The notes below the pieces were generated by a model. It saw only the letters and a program-made list of their open reading frames with translations, did not search any database and was not told the origin of the DNA. 43,844 nt of DNA from Chiloscyllium plagiosum (Eukaryota): NCBI RefSeq assembly GCF_004010195.1, contig NC_057719.1, positions 36,490,585 through 36,534,428 of the forward strand, written 5' to 3'. Position 1 is the first letter of the stretch; each line of letters starts with the position of its first letter. Positions 3,288-43,844 of this stretch are shown here, piece by piece. The position numbers and the translations under genes are program-made.

Positions 3288-4099
3288 CTTCAATGAGCCA
3301 ACACACACTGCAGCCCAGAGGAACTATGCAGGGCAGAGGAAAATCACCTATACCGTGTATTCAAAAAGAATGGGTACCCAATGAACACAGTCTGCCCATT
3401 TCTCAGCAGCAAACCCAAACAAGCAGACAAAACATATCCAGAAACCCTAGCCACTCTCTCCTACATCAAAGACATCTCAGAAATGACTGCCAGACAACTC
3501 AGACCTCTTGGCATCATGGTAGCCCACAAACCCACCAACACACTAAAGCAATAGCTAATGAACTTGAAAGATCCTGTACAGACAACAAGCAAAACTAATG
3601 TCATTTACAAAATACTGTGCAAGAACTGTAACAAACACTACATTGGACAAACAGGCAGAAAACTAGCCACCAGGATAAATGAACACCAACTAGCCACAAA
3701 ATGACATGTCCTTCTCTCACTAGTATCCTTACATAAAGCTAAGGAAGGATACCACTTCGACTGGGACAACACATCCAGTTTAGGACAAGCCAAACAGAGA
3801 CACGCACGAGAATTCCTATAGCATGGCATTCTATCAGCAAACACATTAAGTTAGATCCCATCTACTACCCCCTGAGAAAAGGAACAGGAATTGACATCAC
3901 CACAGGAAATGACATCACCAACCCAAAGAAACCCAAACATATAAATAAAAAGCAGGAATCATGTATACTGCTTCGTCTGAAGCCCACTGAAAATGTTATA
4001 TAATAGGGTGATGAAACGTCTGGAAATGAACCTCCCAGCTCAGTGAGCAAACCTACATCCAGAATCTCAATCTGAGCTACAAATCTTCTCAAAACTCAC
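3288..4099 (+). mobile_element. 5'-truncated Penelope-like element (Poseidon-type), RT C-terminus plus GIY-YIG endonuclease, frameshifted
   Basis: HLYRVFKKNGYP..., NVIYKILCKNCNKHYIGQTGRKLATRINEHQ; homologous to 17690-18340 and 33432-33905; hammerhead-like motif in the 3' end. Confidence 0.85.
3984..4023 (+). ncRNA. degenerate minimal type I hammerhead ribozyme (PLE-associated)
   Basis: cca-CTGAAAA-(stem II)-GAAAC-GTC-tgg; stem I CCA/TGG; core G8 mutated. Confidence 0.6.
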
Positions 4100-5663: not shown

Positions 5664-8600
5664 ATGGCTCTTAAAATTGCTGAAGAGGTTCTGGGATTTG
5701 AAGGTGATTCTCAAATTTGCCAATAAAGTTTAGAAGGAAAGAAAAAGGCCATACTTTTAGAATTAGCAAATACGTTAGATTTGGGTTTCACCAAGGACAA
5801 AAGTAAAGCTGAAATTGTAAGGAATTTACTCAAACACTAAGGTGTGTCAGAAAAACAGACAAGTGCAGTAGAGGTAGAAAAACATCAATCACAATTGAGG
5901 AAAATGGAGTTAGAAGATAAACAAACGGAAACAGAAAGAGAGAGAGAAGAAAGAGCGACAGAAAAAAGAGAGACAGAGGTTCTTAGCTGAGCAAAGAGAG
6001 GCAGAAGAAAGGGAGAGAGAAAGAGAAAGAGAATTTGAACTTAGTCAGCAAAATTAGATTAACAGGGTGGAAATTAAGAGAAAAGGTAGTGGATATATAT
6101 ATAAATATGTCAAAACTCTGCCACATTTTGATGAAAAAGATGTTGAAGCCTTCTTTATTTCATTTGAAAAATTGGTTAGGCAGATGGAGTGGTTCAAGGA
6201 TTTATGAGTAATACCAGTTCAGACTAAACTGGTAGGCAGAGCAAGTGAGGTATTTGCCGCAATGTCAGATGAGGTGTCAAGAGATTATGAAGAGGTTAAA
6301 CAGGCTATTTTAAGTGCTTATGAATTGGTACCAGAATCAGTAAGACAGTGGTGCAGAAACACAAAGAAGGAACCAAGTCAGACTTATGTTGAGTTTGAAA
6401 GAATTAAACATAGTCATTTTGATTAATGGGTGCGTGTTATGAAAATAGATAGGACCTTTGAGGCTCTAAGAGAGATTATTCTGCTGGAGGAGATTAAAAA
6501 CTCACTTCCAGAAATGGTAAGAATTCACATGGAGGAAAAGAAAGTTCAGGAAGTGAGAAGGACAGCAGAATTGGCAGATGAGTACATGTTGGTGCATAAG
6601 ACAAGCGTCCGGCCAGAATTTCGTCCTGTGGGGGATGGAAGTTGGGAGAAGGGGAGATCCTACACTACAAAACCAAGAGTAAAGTGCACTGGTAAGAATT
6701 TACCACAGGATAAAAAAGAAGCCAAGAGGGTGGACAGGAGGTGAAAGGCCTCATGTGTTTTCACTGTAATGGAGTGCGACACGGAAAATTACTGTGCTGG
6801 TGGGTACAGAAGGGCACTGGGAAAAAGTGCCTTCACTGCCAGAAAGTGGGACACGTAAAGTCACAGTGCTGAAGGTTAAAGAAAGGCACTGTGGGAAAAC
6901 ATGTGGTAAAAGAAGCTAAGCCACTGGCATTAGTGAAGGTAGTAAAGGAGACCCCAAGAAGAGTCATGGAGTTGCAGGAGAGTGCACAGCCTAGGCAGGG
7001 GCTGGGTATGGAATTAGTACCTGACCTCCACAAAGAATTTTCCTCTGTGAGTAAAGTTTACTCAGAAAGAACAGGGGCAGAAGGACAAGAAGTTATACTT
7101 TTGAGAGATACAGGATCTAACCAGTAACTGATAGTAAGGGATTAGTGAATATATAGTCTTTCTGATCAGTTACCCGAGAGTGCAGTAATTCGTGGAATAG
7201 ATGGACAGAAATTTAGCATTCCCCTATGTAAGATCAGGTTGGATTGCCAGCTCAAGACTGGGGAAGTTAAAGTGGAAGTGATTGACAGAGTGTCAGTTCC
7301 AGGAATTCAGTTTGTTCTTGGGAATGATTTGGCAGGATCCAAAGTAGGAGTGACACCCCTTGTTGTGGAGAACCCCAAGGAAGACCAATAAACAGTGGAG
7401 ATAAAACAGAAATATTCTGGTATTTTCCAAGATTGTGTGGTAACAAGATCCCATTATCATAAGTTACAGCACGAGGCGAAAAGAGAAAGGTGAAAGCGTC
7501 GAGGTTCAGTTAGTGGATACCCTGTTTGACGTAATAGTGCAGAAAAACCTGAAGAGGCAGAGGGTCAGACAGAAGTGTTTGGTCCTGAAAGACTAAGAGA
7601 CTTGCAACAGCAAGACAAGATGATATCAGATATGTATGTAGATGCATATTCTGAAAAGGAGGCAGAGAATATTCTGGAGGGTTATTATCTGAAAAATTGA
7701 ATCCTACGGCAGAAATGGAGACCATGGCAGGTTAGTGCAGAGGAGAAACGGGCTGAAGTACACCAGATTATGTTGTTGGTAGCATACAGACAGGAAGTGT
7801 TATGGGTAGCACATGGACTACCTGTATGAGGTCACCTAGGGGTACGAAAGACTCAGGCTACGGTACAAAAACATTTAATTGGCGTGGAATGCACAAGGAT
7901 GTGGTTACCTTTTGCCATACATGTCATACATACCAAATGGTAGGTAAGCCACAGGCAGTAATAAAACCATCACCTTTGTTGCCAATTCCCACATCTGATG
8001 AACCTTTCACGCGGGTTATAATTGATTGTGTCGGTTCCCTCCCAAAAACTATAAGTGGGAACCAGTACTAGTTAACCATAATGGATGTGTCCAGCAGATT
8101 TCTGGAGGCAATTCCATTACGGAGTATCAAGGCAAAAAAGGTGATAGAGGAGTTAGTAGCTTTCTTCACACGGTATGGGCTACCCAGAGAGATTCAGTTG
8201 GACCAAGGGTCAAATTTTACTGCTAGGCTGTTTAAGGAGGTTATGGATAGCTTAGGTATACAGCACTTTAAATCCATTGTATATCATCCTGAATCCCAGG
8301 GAGCTTTAGAAAGCTGGCATCAAACCTTGAAGACTATGTTGAGAGCATTCTGTCAGGATTACCCGAATTATTGGGATAAAGGTATCCCATTCGTATTTTC
8401 TGCCATTAGTGACCCCCCAAATTGATTGACGCAGTTCACTCCCTTTCGGTCATGAACTGAGAGGCCCTTTGAAATTAATCAAAGAAAAATTGACAGGCCC
8501 AAAGTCGGAGATCTCACACTTAGATTTTGTATCAGAGGTGAGGGAGAGACTAAATCAAGTAGGTGAGTTAGCTAAACAGCACCTAATGAGAGCATAACAT

Positions 8601-9285
8601 AGAATGAAGTGATTAAAAAAATGAACAAGTCCTTGAGGAGTGGTATAGGTTAGTAAGCTATCTGTCTCAGGAGCATAGAACGCAGTTTGAAGATTTGTTA
8701 CATTAGTATAAGGACGTATGTAAGAAACAGATGGGGAGGACTAATGTTATTGTACATAAAGTAGACGTAGGGAATACTGCTCCGATAAAACAGTACCCCT
8801 ATCTGCTTAATCCTTTCAAAGCCAGACAGGTCCAGATGGAGGTGGAGGCCATGTTTGACGAGGACATCATCGAACCAAGCCAGAACGATCATCCTAGTTC
8901 CCAAACCGGATGGGATTCAATGATTCTGCATGGATTATCAAAAGGACAATGCCGTTTGCGTGGTTACTGGCAGGTACCTTTATTAGAGATGGCGAAAGAA
9001 ATTTCTGCATTTGTAACTCCAAATGGGCTATATCAGATTAAAATGATGCCCTTTGGAATGAAGAACGCACCTGCCACATTCCAAAGACTCATGAACAGAG
9101 TTGTGGCTGGGTTAATAAACTGTGCAGTCTATTTGGACGATGTAGTGATCTTTAGTAAGTCCTGGAAAGATCACATGGTACAGTTGGCAGAGCTCTTTGA
9201 ACGACTATGAGAAGCAAAACTGGTGATAAATTTAAATAACACTGAATTCACGAAAGCAGAGGTGATGTTCTTGGGACATGTTATA
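5664..9285 (+). mobile_element. decayed gag-pol of Gmr1-like Ty3/Gypsy element, order gag-PR-IN-RT, RNase H deleted
   Basis: SCAN-like capsid (LREIILLEEIKNSLP...AELADEY), two CCHC knuckles near 6755-6870, protease LRDTGS near 7100, integrase HHCC and D,D,E (IIDCVG, DQGSNF, YHPESQGALE) near 7810-8425, RT MPFGMKNAPATFQR and YLDD near 8950-9285; many stops and frameshifts. Confidence 0.9.
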
Positions 9286-17430: not shown

Positions 17431-17515
17431 GCTGGAAAAAGCACAGTAAGTCAAGCAGCATCAGAGGAGCAGGAGAGTCAACATTTCAGATAGGAACCCT
17501 TCATCAAGACCTGCT
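17431..17515 (-). mobile_element. PLE terminal-repeat fragment with degenerate hammerhead
   Basis: minus strand gtc-TTGATGA-agggttcctatct-GAAATGTT-gac then tctcctgctcctctgatgctgc, the same family tail as 13090-13140 and 36757-36830. Confidence 0.65.
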
Positions 17516-17689: not shown

Positions 17690-18340
17690 GGGTGTAGGTT
17701 TGCTCTCTGAGCTGTAGGTTTGACATCCAGATGTTTCATTACCTGGCTAGGTAACATCATCAGTGGCGATCTTCAAGTGAAGCAAAGCTGTTGTCTCCTG
17801 CTTTCTATTTATATCTTTCTCCTGGATGGGGTTCCTGGGGTTTGTGGTAATGTCATTTCCTGTTCGTTTTCTGAGGGGTTGATAGATGGCATCTAGATCT
17901 ATGTGCTTGTTTATGGTGTTGTGGTTGGAGTGCCAGGCCTCTAGGAATTCTCTGGCATGTCTTTGCTTAGCCTGTTCCAGGATAGATGTGTTATCCCAGT
18001 CGAAATGGTGGTTTTTTTCATCCGTGTGTAGAGCTATGAGGGAGAGGGGGTCGTGTCTTTTTGTGGCTAGCTGGTGTTCGTGTATCCTGGTGGCTAACTT
18101 TCTTCCTGTTTGTCCTACGTAGTGTTTGTGGCAGTCCTTGCATGGAATTTTATAGATGACGTTGGTTTTGTCCATGGGTTGTACTGGGTCTTTTAAGTTT
18201 GTTAGTTTTTGTTTGAGAGTGTTGGTGGGTTTGTGTGCTACTAGGATTCCGAGGGGTCTCAGTAGTCTGGCTGTCATTTCTGAAACTTCTTTGATATATG
18301 GTAAGGTGGTTAGGGTTTCTGGCTGCGTTTTGTCTGCTTG
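17690..18340 (-). mobile_element. 5'-truncated Poseidon-type PLE with open GIY-YIG endonuclease frame
   Basis: 176-aa ORF NVIYKIPCKDCHKHYVGQTGRKLATRIHEH...HTDEKNHHFDW...REFLEAWHS (GIY-YIG with CCHH residues). Confidence 0.9.
17727..17766 (-). ncRNA. minimal type I hammerhead ribozyme, core nearly intact
   Basis: minus strand: CCA CUGAUGA U GUUACCU AGCC AGGUAAU GAAAC AUC UGG. Confidence 0.75.
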
Positions 18341-18724
18341 TCGACAATCTCAAGTGTAGCAAATATGATTTAAAGCCACTTTATTTTTCACCACTAATCT
18401 CAATAATAGAAGTTCATTCCTAAATGTCCTCCGCCTCCAATTACCATTCCCCATTTAATCATCCTGAGCAAATTTGCTCATTTAGGTCTGTATTAGGAGC
18501 ATTGGTTCTGTGCCCAACATCAATATTTAAAGCTGGCGGAAGCTGTTCATCACATCAATCCGGATCTGAAGCCAGCTTCCAAAAGGTCAAGTGTATTTTG
18601 CTGAACTAGTGAAGCAAATTAGATATGGAATCAAATCATGAGCATGTAATTGGAAAAAAGTCAGAAAATGTTAGTTAATTCAATTTTGTCAGCTAAAATT
18701 GTACTGTGGTAATTTCATCAAAGC

Positions 18725-22399: not shown

Positions 22400-23775
22400 C
22401 TGCCACCATTGTAACAAGAAATGTTCATTAAATTTATGAACTTAGCAACTCACACAGTTGGGTTCAATTTGAATACCATTACCTAAGCCCAAAAAAGATA
22501 GTGCTGCCATGGGATCCTCTGTAGGTCCAGCTCTTACAAATATCTCTGTGGGATACTATGAGAGACATGTCTTTGATGGAATGACACCAAGCCTCTTACA
22601 CCTTACATATTTCAGATATGCAAATGGGATGAATCTATGGCTGGATATAATGATGACCTTACATGTTTTAAGATTCTCCACCCTGCACTCAAATTTACTT
22701 TACAAATGCAACAATCAAATTAGCTTCCTTTCCTTAATAGTCCAGCTGAGAAATCAGAAGGGTGGTTTTCTACTGCAATTTGCTAAAAACATACCTTCAT
22801 TAGTCAGTGCACACATTGGGGACTCCAGTAGTTCCATATTATAAGACCGACCTTGTAACTAAGGTCCCAGCTTTGTTTTCAAAGAGCAAGCATAATTGTG
22901 AAAAATGACACATCAAACCCATCTTGTGGGATACCGACTACCCTGATCACATCATTTATCGCTGTGCAAACTCATGAATCGCTGCAAAGCAGTTACTTTT
23001 GTTCTTGAAAAGTGTCCAGCCAACTTCACATTACCCTCAAAGGCAAGGTATCTTAAAGTTTTGAGCAATAGGGGAAACCAGCTGCTTTGTCTGATGGTGT
23101 AATAACTAACAAGCCAAAAAATGTCAAGCCAAAAAGATGGCCTGCTAAAATGATAATATAGTTTATGAATTTTAATGCCAGTGCAATGCCATATGTGTAG
23201 GCCATACATCAAAGTGGATCCTCTCAAATAGCATGCTCCTTCAGTTGTTCATAACAAGCAAGATATTGACTGTACCAAACCAAACTTGGTCTTGTAATTT
23301 TTGCAACATAGTATTCAACATTAGGTGCAAATCCATAAAGGACAATATTTTCTGAATAATCCAGAGGATGCAAAGTAGTATGCTGACAACCAATTTAGGA
23401 TTGTCAATTGGGCACATTGGGTGACGCAGATATGTGTGTGCTGGAAGCTACATACACAAGGTTCTGTTCTTTGCAGACACAACAAACACGTACACACACT
23501 GTATGTAATTGAATGCAACAAAATAAGTCACAGCTGTTCCCTGGTTTAAATCTCAGGGCAGTGTTTTGACCAATCAAGATAACTGGTTTAAAATTTAAAC
23601 AAAGCTTAGCAGTTAACTATCAGTCATTCTCTAAGGCTATGCCTCTACCAATCAGAATAAACTTTGCAACCATCAGCAGCCTCCTCTGATTCAGTATAAT
23701 TATTCATTTGTCTCTTAAGGTAATATCCTCGTGAATTCTCCTGTTGATTGCAAGATGAAAAGTTTTGTCAAAATG
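22400..23775 (+). mobile_element. decayed third-family Penelope-like element (RT plus GIY-YIG plus hammerhead remnant)
   Basis: RT AMGSSVGPALTNISVGYYE...YFRYA; EN NIVYEF*CQCNAICVGHTS; C-terminal VLCRHNKHV; CTGTTGA...GAAA at 23741-23760. Confidence 0.7.
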
Positions 23776-26880: not shown

Positions 26881-26944
26881 GACGTAGATCCCTGAAGATG
26901 TCAGCACAGGTAAACAAGGTAGTGAAGAAGGCATATCAGATTCT

Positions 26945-27265
26945 TGTTGTGCAGCCTGCAACATATTATCAATAAGGATGAGCATTTCACCAAGACCTTC
27001 CCTATGTCTCCACTTCTCACCTTAAAACAACTACTGAACCTTAAACAGATGATCATTCACAGCAAATTGCCCAGCCTTCAAGACAAGATTGACCACAACA
27101 CCATACAACCCTGTCACGTCAGCCACTGCAAGACGTGTCAGTGTGTCCACACAGATACCACCATTATCCGTGGGGACACCACCCGCTGTGTGTGCAGCAC
27201 GTATTCATGTGACTCGCCCAATATTGTCTATCTCATAGGCTGTAGGTAAGGATGACCTGAGGCAA
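26945..27265 (+). mobile_element. Neptune-type PLE fragment (Cys-rich linker plus start of GIY-YIG)
   Basis: PCHVSHCKTCQ...YSCDSPNIVYLIGC. Confidence 0.75.
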
Positions 27266-27289: not shown

Positions 27290-28400
27290 CCTCCAGATTC
27301 CCATTACCTGCTCTGGGCGAAGAGAAACTTTTCCTCTTATCTCCACTAAACTTCCTGACCCTTGCCTTAAATCTATGTTACCTTGTCATTGATCACTCCT
27401 CCAAGGAGACAAGTTTCTTCCCATCTAAAATGTCTATGCACCTCATAATCTTATATACCTCAATCAAGTTCCCATTCAGTCTTCTCTGCTCCAAGGAAAA
27501 CAATCCCAATCTATCCAATCTCTCTTTAAAACTCTCCAGCCCAGGCTGCATCTTGGTAAATCTGTACCTTCTCCAGTATAATCATATCCCTCCTTCAATG
27601 TGGATTCTAGAACTGCACACAATACTCTAGCTGTGGCCTAACCAACATCTTATACAGTTCCAGCATCTTCTCCCTGCACTTTTAAACTCCTAATAAAGGC
27701 TAATAAAGGCAAGTATTCCACAAGCCTTCTTAATTACTTTATCTATCTGTCCTGCAACCCTGGTCATGTACACCAAGGTCCCTCTGATTCCTCAGTGCTT
27801 CCCAGGATGCTCATGTTTATCATGCAGTTCCTCGCCTTGCGTATCCCACCCAAGTGCATCATCTCAAACTTATCCGGATTAAGTTCCATTTGCCACCAAT
27901 AAGCCCATCTGATCAGGCTGTTTATATCGTCCTGTAATCTAAGGCTATTCTCCTCCGCACCAATCTGCATATCATCCTCAAAGTTACTAATTAACCCTGC
28001 TACATTCAAGTCTAAATCATTTATATATATAGTCTGTTCTGATATAACGCGATAGTTTCGTTTCCGTCCAATCCAACGTTCTAAGAAAATCACGTAATGG
28101 CTGCACCATTTAAACCAATGGGACTAGAATCACGTTTTAGCCAATACAGGCAAGGAAAGTTCATGTTCAACAAATAATGGCCTAAATTCTTCAATTGCAT
28201 CATAGCCAATTCGTGTTGAAGAAATGTGCATTATAGCAGAACCAACTGTACCATAAACTGCAAGAGCCCAACATTACTACCAGTGGAACTCCACTGGAGA
28301 CAGGCTTCCAGTTAAAAAAAACACCCCTCAACAATTACCCTCTGTTTCCCACAACTCAGTCAGTTCTGTATCCAACTTGCCAAAATTTCCTGGATCACTC
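27290..28400 (-). mobile_element. CR1 ORF2 RT fragment interrupted by a MITE
   Basis: IYINDLD...ISNFEDD...LQDDINSLIRWAYWWQMELNPDKFEMMHLG. Confidence 0.8.
28030..28248. mobile_element. Tc1/mariner (pogo/Tigger-like) MITE, 219 bp
   Basis: TIRs tagtctgttctgatataacgc / gcattatagcagaaccaactg, flanked by TA at 28028-29 and 28249-50. Confidence 0.75.
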
Positions 28401-28471
28401 CTTTACCTTCCCAAGTACCCAAAAAAAGTTGTGTAAAGCTGCCCATAATAAAGAGACCTGATAAGAATAAA

Positions 28472-28673
28472 GTTAAAAATCACACAACACCAGGTATAGT
28501 CCAACAGGTTTATTTGGTAGCACTAGCTTTCGGAGCGCTGCTCCGTCATTCACCTGATAAAGGAGCAGCGCTTGGAAAGCTAGTGCTTTCAAATAAACCT
28601 GTTGGACTATAACCTGGCGTTGTGTGATGTTTAACTTTGTACATCCCAATCCAACACCCACATCTCCAAATCA
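28472..28673. mobile_element. palindromic non-autonomous PLE-derived insert with hammerhead motifs and 13-bp TSD
   Basis: about 80-bp inverted arms; TGATAAGAATAAA at 28459-28471 and 28674-28686; cac-CTGATAA-aggagcagcgcttg-GAAAGCTA-gtg at 28551-28585. Confidence 0.8.
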
Positions 28674-29144
28674 TGATAAGAATAAAAATCTTTAATTACT
28701 AAACTCTTGGGTCTTCGGGTAAATGAAAGCTCATACCATCATTACATGTAAACTACATAAAGACTACATCTCCATTGTATATGATAGCAGAAACAGCCCT
28801 GTGAATTGGAGAAGGAAATCTAAGGAGAGAGATCTTTACAAGAAATTACTCAATTGATCCTTTCACACCAAAACCAAGAAAATATCCAGTGATTAAACCT
28901 GTGGGCAGATATGGTTTTCAACCATAATTACATTTTTAGTATTTCACAGCTAAAGCATGCAAAGCTTAAGACACAACCATGAAAACCAGAAATTTCAAAC
29001 TTGAAAGAACAATAGAATTGGATAGAAAAACATGTACGGATGGATTTATACCACATCCTTCACTATCTTAATTTTTTTCACGTAGGGGGTTACATCTAAG
29101 ATTAACATCTGAAAATTAAAACAAAAATCATAACAGCACTATAC

Positions 29145-29292
29145 CTGTTTCAATATCTGTCAGATGAATCATAGAATCAAATCCACCACTGAGGACATTT
29201 CTTCCACAGAAAGACCACTGAGCATCACGAACTGCCTCAGAATGGCACAGGTAAGTCATCAGGCATCTTCCTGTTTCAACTGCATCCCATAT
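29145..29292 (-). CDS. WDR25: WD repeat-containing protein 25, first coding exon visible in window (148 bp)
   Basis: ccttccaatag|ATA TGG GAT...GAA ACA G|gtatag; translates [49 protein letters not shown], matching recalled human WDR25 VWNAVDSGHCLQTY...ILSGGFDFALHLTDLETG; ends in phase 1. Confidence 0.93.
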
Positions 29293-29439
29293 CTATTGGA
29301 AGGTCAAACAATAGAAATGTAGTTTTAAAATTGAATTTGCATTCACTTAGTCAACTTCAAACCTACTACTTCATGAAATGAAAAAAGAAATGAAACAAAA
29401 CAGACCACACTAGGCACCAGAATTGACAGAAGCAAATGC

Positions 29440-33420: not shown

Positions 33421-33431
33421 TATGTAGTCTT

Positions 33432-33905
33432 GATGTAAGTTTGCTCGATGAGCTGGAAGATTCATTTTCAGACGTTTTGTCACCATACTAGGTAACATTA
33501 TCAGTGAGCCTCCAGTGAAGCACTGGTGGCATGGCCTGCTTTCTATTTATGTGTTTAGGTTTCCTTGGGTTGGTGATGTCATTTCCTGTTCTTTTTCTCA
33601 GGGGTGGTAAGTGGGATCCAAGTTAATGTGTTGTTGATAGAGTTCTGGTTGAAGTGCCATGCTTCTTGGAATTCTCGTGCGTATTTCTGTTTGACTTGTC
33701 CTAGAGTTGATGTGTTGTCCCAGTCGAAGTTTGTGTCCTTCCTCATCTGTATGTAAAGATACTAGTGAGAGGGGGTCATGTTGTTTTGTGGCAAGTTGAT
33801 GTTCATGTATCCTGGTGGCTAGTTTTCTGCCTGTTTGTCCAATGTAGTGTTTGTTACAGCTCTTGCAATGTATTTTGTAAATGACATTAGTTTGCTTGTT
33901 GTCTG
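33432..33905 (-). mobile_element. 5'-truncated Poseidon-type PLE, third copy, with degenerate hammerhead at 33468-33507
   Basis: NVIYKIHCKSCNKHYIGQTGRKLATRIHEH; minus strand TCA CTGATAA tgttacctagtatggtgac AAAAC GTC TGA. Confidence 0.88.
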
Positions 33906-34757
33906 TATACATTATCTGGGCATACTATAGGTGGTTGAGACTGGATGGGATGGTCTTTGGAGGGTTGGTACAGATTCGATGGACTGAACAGGCTCTTTCT
34001 GGAATGTAGAGATTCTACGCAAACCTGCTTAAATAGCCTCATCTTCTCTGAATAGGGACATAATTTTCTCAGTAATCAGTCCATGGTAAGGACATGGGCA
34101 ATATTGAAGTATTTAGAGAAATGTAAAAGAAAGTTCATGGAAAGTGTTTCACTTGTTAAGGCAGTTATAACACAGAATTTGAGAAGTCTTTGCCATGCAC
34201 AGCATATAAGTTGGAATTTCAATGACACATTAAGATCTATAGAACAAAGCACAGCCTCAATATAATGTGGTAACTGTGAGCACTCAAGCTCAATGCTATG
34301 CTGTAACTATGAGCTGGATACGAACCATTTTCATTGAAACATAACACTGAAACTTTACCTGTTTCTCTATCCATAGATGCTGCCAAGCCTGCTGATTTTC
34401 TCCAACACTGTTAACATTTTAGTTGTATTTTTTGCCCAAATTGTAAAATCAACAGTAAACTGTGGTCAAGCCCCAAACCTTGCACATTAAATGTGACCAA
34501 GACAAATCCCATAGATTTGCTAGCAATCAAACCCGATGTCAGTAATGACTAAGAGTCACAAAGTTGCACTGACACTTAGATGCTCCTTCAGATGTATTTC
34601 ACTCTTGTAGCAGATTTTTAATTCCCACTAATGTCACTCTAACTTGGAATGCCTGACCATCTTTCACCTCCCAAGGTTCACTCTTGTTTTCCAAATGGTA
34701 TTCCCACACAAACTGTACGCGTAACTTGAGGATCCTTCTCATCTCCTTCTGGTCTCT

Positions 34758-38173: not shown

Positions 38174-40131
38174 ATGGATGCAACTCTAGATAAGATGGAA
38201 GCTAAATGATAAAATAATAAGTCTGTATCCTAATTATGAGAAACAACTAAGGAGAATATCGGCTGCAGCTGCTCACCAGAATAAGGATTGGCCTCTAGGA
38301 GGCACACATGACTTAAATTAGATTAGATTAGATTACTTTACAGTGTGGAAACAGGCCCTTCGGCCCAACAAGTCCACACCGACCCGCCGAAGCGCAACCC
38401 ACCCATACCCCTACATTTACCCCTTACCTAACACTACGGGCAATTTAGCATGGCCAATTCACCTAACCTGCACGTCTTTGGACTGTGGGAGGAAACCGGA
38501 GCACCCGGAGGAAACCCACGCAGACACGGGGAGAACGTGCAAACTCCACACAGTCAGTCGCCTGAGGCGGGAATTGAACCCAGGTATCCGACGCTGTGAG
38601 ACAGCAGTGCTAACCACTGTGCCAATCTCCTCCGGTTCCCCCTCAAAACTCACTCACAATACGGCCTAGGCGAACACGCTTCATAAAACAAAAAGTCGCC
38701 TGAACTCCCCTCCCTAATCTGAGGACGAATGTGCCAAGGCCCATGTCCTTCCTCCAACTGTTCAGCTAAATAAGGATTCGGCTTACCATGAACCCGTAGC
38801 CCACCGCACTAGGAGTCAATTAAAAGTAAAACGTGGAGGAAACACTGAAGAGACTCCTTTGATTTCCACTGCCCCTATATTAATAAATCCCAAATTCATG
38901 GATGAATTGCAGTCAAAGTTTTGGGACCTTAATATCAGTCATTGCATTCACCCTGACGTGGGAGGGCCAAAGAGAAATGTCCCGAATAGAAGAGTTCCTA
39001 ACCCACAGGCCCTGAATCTGGGACAAGCCCAATTTGTGGATCTATATCAACCATGGAAACCTTGTGAACTCTCAAGCATTATCAATAAGGCTCCAGATTA
39101 TGGAAAGAATCCTGAGGGATTTGTTAATTACATTAATAGGACTAGGACCATTTATAATGCTGCCTCCCAAGACCTATTTCGCCTCTGAGAATGCACCCTT
39201 TCCCCTGAAAAATGGACGGAGTACAGTGTTATAATCATAGCCAGCTTGTAGTCTGACACAACGCCGAACCTAATAGATCTAATTGGATTATTACCTGTCT
39301 CCGCCAAGGAGTGCGTCATGCAGTTGATGTGGGTAAAGTCTTAACATATAAACCCAGCTTTGGCGAAGGGGTTGAGGAGTTCCTTACCTGTTTTAAGGAA
39401 TGCTAATGGCACTTAACTCTGTTGACGCTACCTACCCACAAGGGCAATCAACCCAATTTAATGCCCTATGTATGACCGTCTTACCTGATCAGGTACAGGA
39501 AGCTATTAAAACCCGCAACATCAGCTGGCAAGATGCCCGCGTTGCACATTTCAGCCGAGAGGTTTGTTACTTCTGGGAATTAAAGAATCCCAACAGTAAG
39601 GCTATCATTGGCAAAGTCAAGACAGAACATGCCCGAACTACAGGGGCTAAACCTCAACCCAGGATTCAAAATAGACGTTTCTGTCCGCAAGGTCAGTCAA
39701 ACTATCAAATGGAACCCTCATACTGTCATCCAGTATGGCAGGACAGTAGGCATGGTCCGTGTATTCACAACATCCCAATGGACCTTGGGGTCCTCCTATG
39801 TATCCTCTCCAACAGTCCATGATGCCCCTTACTCCCGATACATCCTCTCATTATTCTTCACTGCCTAGAGTCCCCCAGCAATCACATGTTTGTTTCAATT
39901 GTAATCAACCAGGACACTGGTCCAAGAACTGTTCTTTCCCAAAGCAGCCCCTGGTTGATCGCCGGAGTGGAAGCAACCTCTTGGTCGCCCTCCCCAGAGA
40001 CCTCAGCAGGTTGCCCCTTTTACCACACAAAACCCTTTTCCATCCTTGACACCTGTGTTACAGCTGTTCTTACCCAGCAATATGGCTCCTCTTGATGCCC
40101 AGTTGCATTTTATTCTACTAAGCTTGACTCT
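38174..40131 (+). mobile_element. decayed class I (gamma/epsilon-like) ERV gag plus short pol connection fragment
   Basis: matrix WPLGGT, PVAHRTRS, capsid PWKPCELSSIINKAPDYGKNPEGF...TIYNAASQDL, knuckle CFNCNQPGHWSKNC, then TKPF...AVLTQQYGSS*CPVAFYSTKLD. Confidence 0.8.
38318..38626 (-). mobile_element. HE1 SINE inserted in ERV gag
   Basis: antisense of 31860-32193, with a ttagattagatt tail; first about 10 nt missing. Confidence 0.93.
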
Positions 40132-40301: not shown

Positions 40302-41160
40302 ATGACTAAAGGGAAGGGAACCCGCAGCTCTCAGCAAGCAGGAACCCCTCCTCCACCCTCTCCAGCTGCAGCAGAGTCGTCCGCAGCCGCCCCGGGGGAC
40401 TTACCTACGGTGGCGAGCCTCGTGGAAATCATCTCCAAACTGGATGCGAAGATCGACGCTTTTATTGAAGAATCCCGAAGTCGATGGGACTCACTCTTGG
40501 CCGCGCTGCAAAAGCACGACCCGAGACATTAAGGAAATCAAGCGCCGAGTCAAAGGGGGGGAGCTAAAGGCCGCGACCTCCGAAACTACAACGCAATCGG
40601 CCGTGAATCGGGTCCGGACTCTCGAACAGCGAGTCCGAACCTTAGAGAATCATACTGATGACGTCGATAATCGAGGTCGCCGAAAAAATATTCATTTGCT
40701 GGGCCTTCCCGAACGGGAAGAGGAAGGCCAGCTTACAGCGTTTCTCGAACAGTGGCTGCCACAGCATTTAACTCTGGAGGCTGGATCAGGCCAGGTAAGG
40801 GTGGAATGGGCCTACCGGGTTGCAATACGCGGGCCCGGCTCGAACCAGCGTCCCCGCCCGGTCCTGTTCCGGCTGCAGAGCTATAAGGAGAGGCAGATAC
40901 TCCTAGAAGCCTCAAGAAATCTTGGAAAAGATTCCCAAGCCATGATCTATAAAGGATCCAAGATCATGTTATTCCAGGACTTTTCTCCAGCTCTGGTCCG
41001 AAAGAGGAAGGCATTTGATGAGGCGAAGAAGTGTTTAAGGGACTTAAATATTCAGTACTCCTTACACTACCCAGCGATGCTATGCTTTAACCATGAAGGA
41101 TCCGTATATAACTTCCGATCGCCAGAAAAGGCTAAGGAATTTTTGGACTCTCTTAGGTAA
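40302..41160 (+). pseudogene. L1 ORF1p (coiled coil, RRM, CTD), frameshifted near 40530
   Basis: DNRGRRKNIHLLGLPE...RPRPVLFRL...IMLFQDFSPALVRKRKAF. Confidence 0.88.
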
Positions 41161-41878
41161 ATTGTAAGAGATAAAGGATGTTGGTTTACCTTCTCCCCGC
41201 TCCGGTTTATATCCCTTTTTCTATCTTACTGTTTAATATTATCTTGGGGGGTGGGGAGAGGGATATATTTATTTGTTCTCTACTGAACGATTTTCTCCCC
41301 CCCCTTGGGTTTTTAAAAAATTATTCTATATATATATAAGCCGGAGGGTCTAGTTAATGTTGGTGGGGGGAGGCGGTTACCTTATTCTATTTTACCTCTG
41401 TCTCTAGGAGTGGGGTTGTTTTCCCTTGTTATTTTGTAGTATTATATTTAATTATTATTTGTTGAGGTTGTAATTTTACAGTTATATATGTTTATACATG
41501 GTATTAACATTACCAAATATATCCAGGTGTTGGTGTGGGTCGGGGGGTGGGGGTAGGGTACTTACTGTTAACTCTAGCTTTGTAGTATATTTGAATTCTC
41601 CTCATCCTATTGAGGTGCGCCTGGGTCAAGGGTAGGTCACTGGTTGGGAGAGGATACGATGGACCTTTGGAAAGGAAGTGACACCCCCGGGAACAAGGGG
41701 GAAAATCTTCATTTAAATACGTTTTATATTTATTTTATTATTTAGAAATAGTTTTTTATTATACTGTTGTGAGTGTATTAGAGAGCATTTATTTTTGTGA
41801 ATTTTATATGCTCTATGCTCGGCATGTTCTGCATAGGGTTTCCCCTCCCGAAGGGGTCTCGGATTTGCCCGGACGATT

Positions 41879-43844
41879 ATGGTTGATCAGTCGGTTAAGT
41901 GGTGCACCTGGAATGTCAAGGGGAGTAATTCGCCAGTCAAAAGGAAGAAAATATTATCAAATCTCAAGAAAGAAAGAGCTGATATAGCTCTCCTACAGGA
42001 GACACAGCTGTTGGATAAAGAACACTTGAAATTACGACAGGGTGGATTTGATCAGGCCTTTTTTTCTTCATTTAGCTCAAAAAATAGGGGAGTTGTTATT
42101 CTTATTCGGAATAATTTCCCTTTCAAAATCCAAAATCAGATAAAAGACGAATCTGGATGATATATTCTGATTAAAGCCCTTATAAATGGAGAGGAATATA
42201 GGATTTTAAATTTGTACTGCCCCCCCGGCACACCCCTTTAAATTTATAACGGAAGCCTTTTCAAAATTGATGGCTTTTGATGCCCGTCATATAATTATAG
42301 GGGGAGACTTTAATTGTATTATGGATCCGGAAATAGACAGGATTCCCAAGATTTTTCTTTTTACTCCAATCCACATAAATGTCATACCAGAATTAATATG
42401 TTTTTTGCCCCCTTGATTTTTAAAAATTCCATATCATCCTGTAAAATAGGTAGTATAGCAATTACCGACCACGCTGCTGTACATATGGAAATCAAGGCGA
42501 GGAACAACGGGACATCCCCTCAGCATTGGCGTATGGACCCCTTCCTGATGAAAGATAGTAAATTTGTAAAGTACTTCTCTCAAGAATTTAAAACTTTTTT
42601 AGAAATTAATTTAGGTACGGCTAGCAACCCATCAATGATGTGGGAGACCATCAAAGCTTACACGCGAGGTTTGATCATCTCATACTCAGCGACCCAGAAA
42701 AAATTAAAGGAAGAACAACAGCATCTGCTTGAAGCTCGCTTAAAAGCAGCTGAAACAGCATACGCTGATAGACCTTCTATTATCAAATTGCAAAGGATTA
42801 CGGCCCTTAGGACAGCTCTAAACACCAGGCTTACCCAAATGGCTAAGAGGGAAATAGTATTTGCAAAACGAAGGTTATATGAATTTGGCGACAAACCGGG
42901 TAGATACTTAGCATTTCTTGCAAAGAAAAAAAAGGCCCATCAAACTATCACGTCTATCAAGGAAAGTATGGGTATTTTGACTCATGATCATAAAAGGATT
43001 AATGCAATCTTTAGAAAATCTTATTCTGATTTATATAAATCACAGGATTGTGAAGACAGGACTAGGAGGATGCAATCATTTTTTAAAAATTTGACCTTTC
43101 CGGACCTAACTCCGGAACAGGTATCGGTCTTAAATGCTCCCCTAACAATCCAAGAAATACTTGACGCAATCAGGCAACTTCAGAGCGGTAAGGCACCTGG
43201 CCCAGATGGGTTTCAAGCTGAATTCTATAAAGAATTTACAGGAATATTGGCTGGTCCACTTATGGACATGTATAACTACGCATACAGTCAGGGATGTCTC
43301 CCGCCTTCGCTGAAAGTGGCAAATATCTCTCTTATCCTTAAAAAAGGGAAGGATCCAGAAGATTGTGCATCACACAGACCAATATCCTTGCTAAATGTAG
43401 ATTTTAAAATCCTTTCTAAAACGTTAGCATTGAGACTAGAAAGGGTATTGCCACATAGCATAAAGGAGAATCAGACAAGGTTTATTAACGGCCGTAGATC
43501 ATCTGATAATATTAGAAGGGTTTTGAATATGATTCAAGCCTGCCATCAGGGAAAGATACCAGGAGTAGTAGTCTCATTAGACACGGAAAAGGCATTCGAC
43601 AGGGTTGAATGGTCATATTTGTTTTACACATTGGAAAGGTTTGGCGTTGGAAAGGCGTTTATCAAATGGGTCTCAACATTGTATAGTGATCCCAAAGCAG
43701 TTGTGGTTACCAATGGATTAGGTTCGGATAGCTTCAATGTGGGTAGGGGCTGCCGTCAGGGATGTCCCCTCTCGCCATTGTTATTCACGCTAATAATTGA
43801 ACCACTAGCAGAAGCTATACGAGCTGATCCTAATATAACGGCCC
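41879..43844 (+). pseudogene. L1 ORF2p (APE endonuclease plus RT), stop at 42160, frameshift and deletion near 42350
   Basis: TWNVKG...IALLQET, GGDFN, KAPGPDGF, RPISLLNVDFKILSK, SLDTEKAFDRVEW, RGCRQGCPLSPLLF. Confidence 0.9.

Follow-up and report, generated by a model that had tools for sequence, protein, structure and literature searches.

Penelope-like elements (PLEs) are the described systems that come closest to the insert reported here, and inverted end pieces are a published part of their anatomy. In the portion of PMC3846280 considered here, rotifer examples have an inverted pseudo-LTR (pLTR), an optional 31-bp tail, a target-site duplication (TSD) of 8-10 bp and head-to-head junctions, and the accessible section of PMC8557442 describes in PLEs an 'inverted 5'-truncated copy immediately adjacent' together with a tail of 30-40 bp. 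According to the available part of PMC4209133, dual minimal hammerheads (min-HHRs) lie 100-700 bp apart on opposite strands, and the minimal consensus given in its Fig. S3 reads NNN CUGANGAH G..C GAAAN NU H NNN. Animal non-LTR retrozymes, as presented in the available part of bioRxiv 10.64898/2026.07.22.740005, consist of at least two consecutive units in the same direction with complete hammerheads. Insertion has been studied in vitro for PAc, a Poseidon element of Anolis carolinensis. Its protein favours A/T-rich DNA, cleaves both strands of the target and extends them, and begins to copy the RNA at two sites, one on each side of the tail; hammerhead cleavage is unnecessary, uncleaved RNA being used, and the protein is predicted to be a dimer (PMC11167929, in the sections considered).

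The window, that is the whole stretch of 43,844 nucleotides of Chiloscyllium plagiosum DNA that was analysed, contains an insert with a comparable layout next to an exon of the host gene WDR25. The features of the locus are as follows, in window coordinates.

28459-28471, no strand: left copy of the 13-bp TSD
28472-28549, minus: inverted, 5'-truncated end piece without tail; its minus-strand start lies inside the hammerhead core, its stem II is perfect and an AATAAA is present
28509-28514, minus: AATAAA of the inverted arm, in the direction of the host gene, predicted to be paired in the hairpin
28550-28556, plus: single-copy centre of the hairpin (inversion junction), with little family depth over it
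28551-28635, plus: direct, 5'-truncated end piece (pLTR-like), beginning 3 nt 5' of the hammerhead core
28551-28585, plus: relic of a minimal type I hammerhead, with stem I at 28551-53/28583-85, GAAA-GC-UA and the nominal cut after 28582
28554-28574, plus: core (28554-61, G8>A at 28559) and stem II (28562-74, closing pair broken at 28574) of this relic
28592-28612, plus: AATAAA (28592-28597) and poly(A) attachment sites of family RNAs, then a GU-rich stretch
28636-28673, plus: A/C-rich tail of 35-38 nt, at the right end only
28674-28686, no strand: right copy of the 13-bp TSD
29145-29294, minus: host WDR25 exon with one WD40 repeat, from a spliced contig, donor GT at 29144

The perfect 13-bp TSD around a 202-bp insert (28472-28673) that the initial annotation had proposed was recovered, the flanking repeat TGATAAGAATAAA being identical in 13 of 13 positions (28459-28471 and 28674-28686). 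Among exact 13-mer pairs spaced 150-300 nt apart in the window, the only others were 20 overlapping pairs within one other repeat, and the probability of a 13/13 match by chance at the given boundaries is ~4e-6, or ~3e-3 when five letters possibly derived from the element are discounted. The palindromic arms also stand, with their limits refined to 28472-28549 and 28557-28635; they are complementary in 70 of 79 columns and are separated by 7 single-copy bases. The unique tail of 35-38 nt is likewise present, running over 35 nt (28639-28673), or over 38 nt if it is taken to start at 28636. The insertion target is A/T-rich (34 of 43 bases), and the last AAA of the left flanking repeat matches the element's own TTT at 28636-28638. 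No second copy of the insert was found elsewhere in the window.

The plus-strand RNA of the insert is predicted to fold with -126.1 kcal/mol (z -17.4; 0 of 200 shuffled sequences were equally stable) and the minus-strand RNA with -127.6 kcal/mol. Hammerhead positions are numbered here in the usual way (C3, G8, G10.1, C11.1). A relaxed hammerhead scan of both strands of the window found four motifs, including the one on the plus strand at 28551-28585. This type I motif is built as had been described, except that it has two core lesions and not the change of G8 alone, since the C11.1 that closes stem II is also replaced, by G (28574), in addition to the G8>A change (28559). The minus-arm motif does have the perfect stem II and the truncation within the core that had been reported; however, besides C3, the 5' strand of stem I is absent as well, and the relaxed scan of the window did not pick this motif up. 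In the fold of the full insert, 28562-28585 pairs with the opposite arm at a probability of 0.99-1.0, the mutated 28574 excepted, and stem II, the GAAA and the cleavage site all lie inside the predicted pairing of the long hairpin. On neither strand does this copy combine the intact C3-G8 core, the G10.1-C11.1 closure and the freedom to fold of a working hammerhead, and neither of its two motifs can be expected to cleave. No Rfam hammerhead family was detected in the insert at the gathering cut-off or at E<=10. A match to MIR5070 (42.7 bits against a cut-off of 100) was rejected, as it reflects just the long hairpin. The fourth motif of the relaxed scan, at 17476-17511 on the minus strand, has a U at position 3 and is possibly a chance match.

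Sequencing pieces from four of 24 listed runs were aligned to 28100-29320 at 82% likeness: DNA of organism A (X1), of organism B (X14, about 85% of the run read) and of organism C (X16), and one RNA run (X21). The aligned contig pieces numbered 46,971 in X1, 44,398 in X14 and 6,083 in X16, totals to which a second repeat at about 28100-28250 contributes some pieces. Nearly all of the aligned depth sits on the insert, with a summed depth of ~1e6 in X1 compared to ~9 on the unique flank. The ratio of summed depth to unique flank is ~6e4 over the tail and ~2e5 over the hammerhead region, which corresponds to a family of very roughly 1e5 copies, the ratio being an order of magnitude and not a copy number. 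The second repeat, which adjoins the insert at 28100-28250, is less abundant, with a summed depth of up to ~1e4 in X1.

The initial annotation had suggested that a family consensus be checked for CUGAUGA, and the majority letters of the family indeed restore this core as well as stem II. G is present at 28559 in 34,184 of 54,383 depth units in X1 (63%), in 56,266 of 87,367 in X14 (64%) and in 550 of 615 reads in X21, about one third of the aligned depth at this position not being G, and in X1 position 28573 is C in 198,357 of 275,054 and position 28574, which pairs with G10.1, is T in 195,591 of 282,268, shares that are not family frequencies because pieces go to the better-fitting arm. The majority motif fits the Fig. 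S3 consensus of PMC4209133 in the part of that figure considered.

The family continues upstream of the point where the arms of this copy stop. In X1, 222 and 226 contigs run beyond 28549 and 28551, respectively, into a common upstream stretch (agreement 0.46 and 0.43). The X1 depth is 1,828 at 28549 and 1,686 at 28550 compared to ~1e6 beside them, about two thirds of it with upstream letters and not with this junction, and the junction of this copy is borne by at most ~680 of the ~1e6 depth units. The upstream continuation and the very low depth over the centre indicate that both arms are cut-down pieces, and the rarely shared junction indicates that the palindrome was probably made at insertion and not copied as a unit, although assembler contigs break at repeats and palindromes, which makes the low junction depth weaker evidence than whole copies. 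Strand-switch joints occur at three other places among the joints listed (15 of 306), and no empty-site joint is found among these same 15.

At the other side, two family right ends bracket the tail, one at 28638 without the tail and one at ~28673 with it. In X1 and in X14, 278 contigs each depart from the insert at 28638 and continue in dissimilar, A/T-rich sequence (agreement 0.34); the depth falls from 169,885 at 28660 to 2,432 at 28675. About 500 contigs per DNA run (X1, X14 and X16) exit at 28627 into a variant arm end followed by a tail, which points to a sister subfamily. The insert occurs in organism B, whose record 16 bridges the right junction with 16 differing letters in 693, and in organism C 23 letters of the insert were found at the left junction, below the bar of 31 letters. 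The insert, being present in B and probably in C, therefore predates the split between the two.

Taken as a whole, the locus agrees with an insertion of an endonuclease-bearing (EN+) PLE: a pLTR with a minimal type I hammerhead (in the family majority, this copy having its two lesions), a head-to-head inverted, 5'-truncated copy at the 5' side, a 35-38-nt tail at one end and a short duplication of an A/T-rich target. We thus consider the insert to be an inactive insertion of a Penelope-like end module that is strongly truncated at its 5' side, with a probability of about 0.85, and its mirror-image left arm was probably made during insertion. The Penelope-type anatomy that had been claimed (inverted end piece, end piece and tail) is borne out by the arms, the tail, the duplication and the upstream continuation of the family, and the claim of a single insertion event is supported as well. 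Membership of the PLEs is likely rather than proven, because the family's own ORF was not found. In a protein search, a 48-aa reading of the insert had 0 real matches among 16 candidates, and three protein matches to the reading of the insert (E 3.5e-5 to 6.7e-4) were rejected, all being to repetitive unrelated proteins. A long pattern of the insert had 0 matches in a pattern scan. The matches of an 18-mer pattern, 77 in metagenome contigs and 47 in prokaryote genome contigs, were discarded as chance in 124 of 124 cases, none of them aligning over 30 bases. A literature search (subscription journals and Repbase/Dfam outside its scope) found no publication on this shark family.

An analogue is present in the window itself, in a separate family with a GIY-YIG-like ORF at 17747-18349 (minus strand), which Pfam matches at E 0.0024 without reaching its curated cut-off. 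At 17727-17766 (minus strand), the stop of this ORF is overlapped by a hammerhead that is built alike and has an intact CUGAUGA, and this arrangement, in which a GIY-YIG-like ORF runs into a hammerhead, was counted in favour of the PLE reading of the insert. The PLE families of the window have no sequence in common with the insert. GIY-YIG-like ORF ends mark a second Penelope-like family, of which the window contains three copies with 5' truncation, at 17690-18349 (minus), 3419-4060 (plus) and 33428-33924 (minus), for none of which an inverted arm was found at E 0.05. At 26926-27264 (plus), a further Penelope-like ORF is represented by an internal fragment that has CxxC motifs and is bordered by a LINE-like piece on the opposite strand; its ORF piece 26926-27249 matched six PLE-like eukaryotic proteins at 59-71% identity, which in a tblastn search of the window matched just this piece and not the insert, and a rescan of the piece gave no Pfam family. 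For these window ORFs we take Neptune and Poseidon to be the clade labels. By eye, a decayed stretch at 22473-22844 (plus) resembles the RT motif region of a Penelope-type element, with no Pfam hit, broken pieces at 6427-9210 (plus) resemble the gag, integrase and RT of an LTR retroelement, a gag-like region with a zinc knuckle lies at 38718-40049 (plus), and an L1-like ORF1 with the start of an endonuclease at 40306-42939.

The initial annotation had taken the insert for a complete non-autonomous retrozyme-like unit, a view in which the palindrome itself would be mobile and both strands would carry a ribozyme. A single clean unit with a perfect duplication would agree with this, as would the derivation of animal retrozymes from pLTRs stated in the available part of bioRxiv 10.64898/2026.07.22.740005. 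However, no tandem of units in the same direction is present, the one direct and the one inverted piece carry motifs that face apart and are both broken, the segment from stem II through the cut site is paired in the hairpin, and the palindromic junction is found in a minute part of the X1 depth. Since both hammerheads are broken and their intact parts are paired, the insert is no retrozyme by this evidence, and such a unit appears highly improbable. The chances of a DNA-transposon MITE, or of a foldback element with long terminal inverted repeats, are smaller still and close to negligible, even though the insert is ~200 bp long, palindromic, non-coding and flanked by a duplication, and palindromic 200-bp DNA repeats occur in frog (PMC5625713, part considered). 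Its right arm ends 35-38 nt inside the insert, so that the inverted repeats are not terminal; in addition, the duplication measures 13 bp, the family has a hammerhead consensus, and members without the fold-back centre argue against a fixed unit. The initial annotation had also warned that such an insert could be mis-annotated as a MITE.

For the origin of the fold-back, and within the PLE reading, we lean slightly towards insertion with two primers, which we hold to be somewhat better than an even bet. The two target strands would be nicked 13 nt apart, the bottom-strand end would prime a copy from the far end of the tail, giving the right arm and the tail, and the top-strand end would start another copy at the near end of the tail, giving the left arm, aided by the AAA/UUU match. 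Both copies would halt at the 5' edge of the hammerhead and then be joined, and fill-in would yield the duplication; the enzyme would have been supplied by a full-length element elsewhere, and the copy would have decayed after insertion. Both arms extend 5' past the nominal cut site, from which the template RNA would have been uncleaved. The finding that PAc primes without homology to the target (PMC11167929, sections considered) counts against this mapping, and the inner ends of the arms are merely 7 nt apart, which with two primers needs both copies to have stopped at one RNA end. A literature search (subscription journals outside its scope) found no publication of a two-primer model for PLE inversions. 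The 7-nt loop and the nearly coincident inner ends would follow without further assumption, and the loop at least as simply, if one cDNA had snapped back (or an antisense RNA had primed itself) and copied itself, the endonuclease then trimming at the tail boundary; TCA and TGA triplets in the centre could seed the pairing. However, the TCA and TGA that lie closest together have 2 bases between them, which would not suffice for a single-strand loop, and the outer end of the left arm is a family right end that is seen independently (28638). This outer end also fits the two-start, both-strand activity of PAc (PMC11167929), whereas the interpretation of palindromic inverted junctions as self-priming (PMC3846280) and the attribution of the tail to endonuclease resolution (PMC8557442) speak for snap-back, each in the parts of these papers considered. 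We regard snap-back as possible but on the unlikely side.

A further explanation concerns only the source RNA and is compatible with the PLE insertion reading, namely that the template was a short ORF-less RNA reaching from the vicinity of the hammerhead to past the tail, from a SINE-like parasite of PLEs, the fold-back still being formed at insertion. Such a template would account for two arms that end within 7 nt of each other at the 5' edge of the hammerhead and for the very high depth limited to the end module. However, the 222-226 X1 contigs mentioned above run upstream into shared sequence, and a full-length transcript copied from the 5' pLTR would give the same product, PAc starting internally according to the available part of PMC11167929. 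Moreover, the polyadenylated family RNAs that were seen stop before the tail and so could not have been this template. The short template is thus doubtful, and a little more so than snap-back.

The RNA run X21 is a poly(A) 3'-end single-cell run of one sample, of which ~2% was read. At least 1,588 of its 3,134 aligned reads carry poly(A) or poly(T) (four loose-end rows listed), and the poly(A) is attached after 28609 or 28612, or at the mirror places on the 28495-28514 side, 12-15 nt behind AATAAA. The first mates are antisense to the pLTR direction. An accumulation of molecule ends at the nominal cut site was not listed, which says little in a library of 3' ends. Internal priming is disfavoured as the cause, as 1-3 A's are found in the 20 bases after the sites in this copy, although other copies could differ. 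Reads at least 99% alike to this copy number 5 of 3,134, and its private letters are rare (at 28518, 1,441 of 1,484 have A and not T), which indicates that nearly all of the poly(A) reads come from other copies. At 28520, 308 of 1,487 RNA reads have an insertion of two bases compared to 0.24% of the DNA depth, and this enrichment suggests that a few loci dominate; these are probably host transcripts that end in a family copy. In the part of Fig. S3 of PMC4209133 considered, several rows (frog, turtle) have an AAUAAA shortly after the hammerhead. No publication on poly(A) sites in PLE pLTRs was found, a weak negative, as the bracketed spelling escapes the search and subscription journals were outside its scope. 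It is conceivable, but improbable, that a working poly(A) site travels with the end module, in ~1e5 copies, and that the fold-back is its built-in silencer. The AATAAA arm is transcribed after its own complement in either direction and would therefore be zipped up, and intronic fold-backs would be tolerated, as they would not truncate the transcript. If so, single sense copies would be either exapted as gene ends or purged, and there would be a selective reason for inverted PLE ends, in addition to a two-primer mechanism that is readable from the copies.

The adjacent exon belongs to WDR25, with 96% identity over 49 aa to the Chiloscyllium punctatum protein, and the insert sits in the intron that follows it, with 471 nt between the exon and the end of the insert. 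As the exon is on the minus strand, the plus-strand hammerhead lies in antisense orientation to the host pre-mRNA, and the inverted minus arm is the sense arm within it, its AATAAA lying ~630 nt into the intron in the host direction and being predicted to be paired. The long dsRNA that had been placed in the WDR25 pre-mRNA about 470 nt from an exon is confirmed as a predicted structure, and this pre-mRNA would carry a hairpin of ~80 bp without ribozyme activity. Heavy editing of Penelope copies has already been reported in lizard (PMC5625713, part considered), and the dsRNA point is therefore not new. The A>G and T>C places are no more numerous in the RNA run X21 (12 and 15) than in the DNA run X1 (10 and 16), a comparison that does not bear on this locus because the X21 reads come from many loci.

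The insert itself matters little, as a single degenerate member of a shark repeat that is very common, and since its layout is already published for PLEs it is an ordinary one. In annotation, copies of this kind should be entered as Penelope-like ends and not as MITEs or retrozymes. A family of this size could decide between two primers and snap-back as the origin of inverted PLE ends, an origin that the available part of PMC8557442 lists as undefined, and if individual loci confirm that the family serves for polyadenylation, these ends would supply shark transcripts with 3' ends on a large scale.

Compared to the known systems, each in the parts of the cited sources considered, the insert resembles non-LTR retrozymes in being non-coding and pLTR-derived and in carrying a type I hammerhead (bioRxiv 10.64898/2026.07.22.740005), whereas retrozymes are head-to-tail tandems with complete motifs and the insert is a single head-to-head fold-back with broken ones. 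With PAc the family shares the two ends that bracket an A/C-rich tail, the A/T-rich target and copies that extend beyond the hammerhead cut site; in contrast to PAc, no ORF opens at stem II in any of three frames, a 3-nt match between target and element is found at the left junction, and inverted products are unreported for PAc in the sections available. The minimal hammerheads of PLE pLTRs (PMC4209133) and those of the family have in common a 3-bp stem I, an extra base before stem II, G10.1 and the palindromic AGCU, and opposite-strand pairs are reported there as in the insert, although the rows of Fig. S3 considered include no cartilaginous fish and, unlike its motifs, both motifs of this copy are broken. 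The EN+ PLE units (Penelope/Poseidon and Neptune; PMC3846280, PMC8557442) differ in that the insert is an end module alone, of 202 bp and without a trace of an ORF, and its TSD of 13 bp, compared to 8-10 bp in the rotifer examples of PMC3846280, counts against the PLE reading. With these same units, however, the insert shares the head-to-head inverted piece at the 5' side, the tail at one end, the TSD and the 5' truncation.
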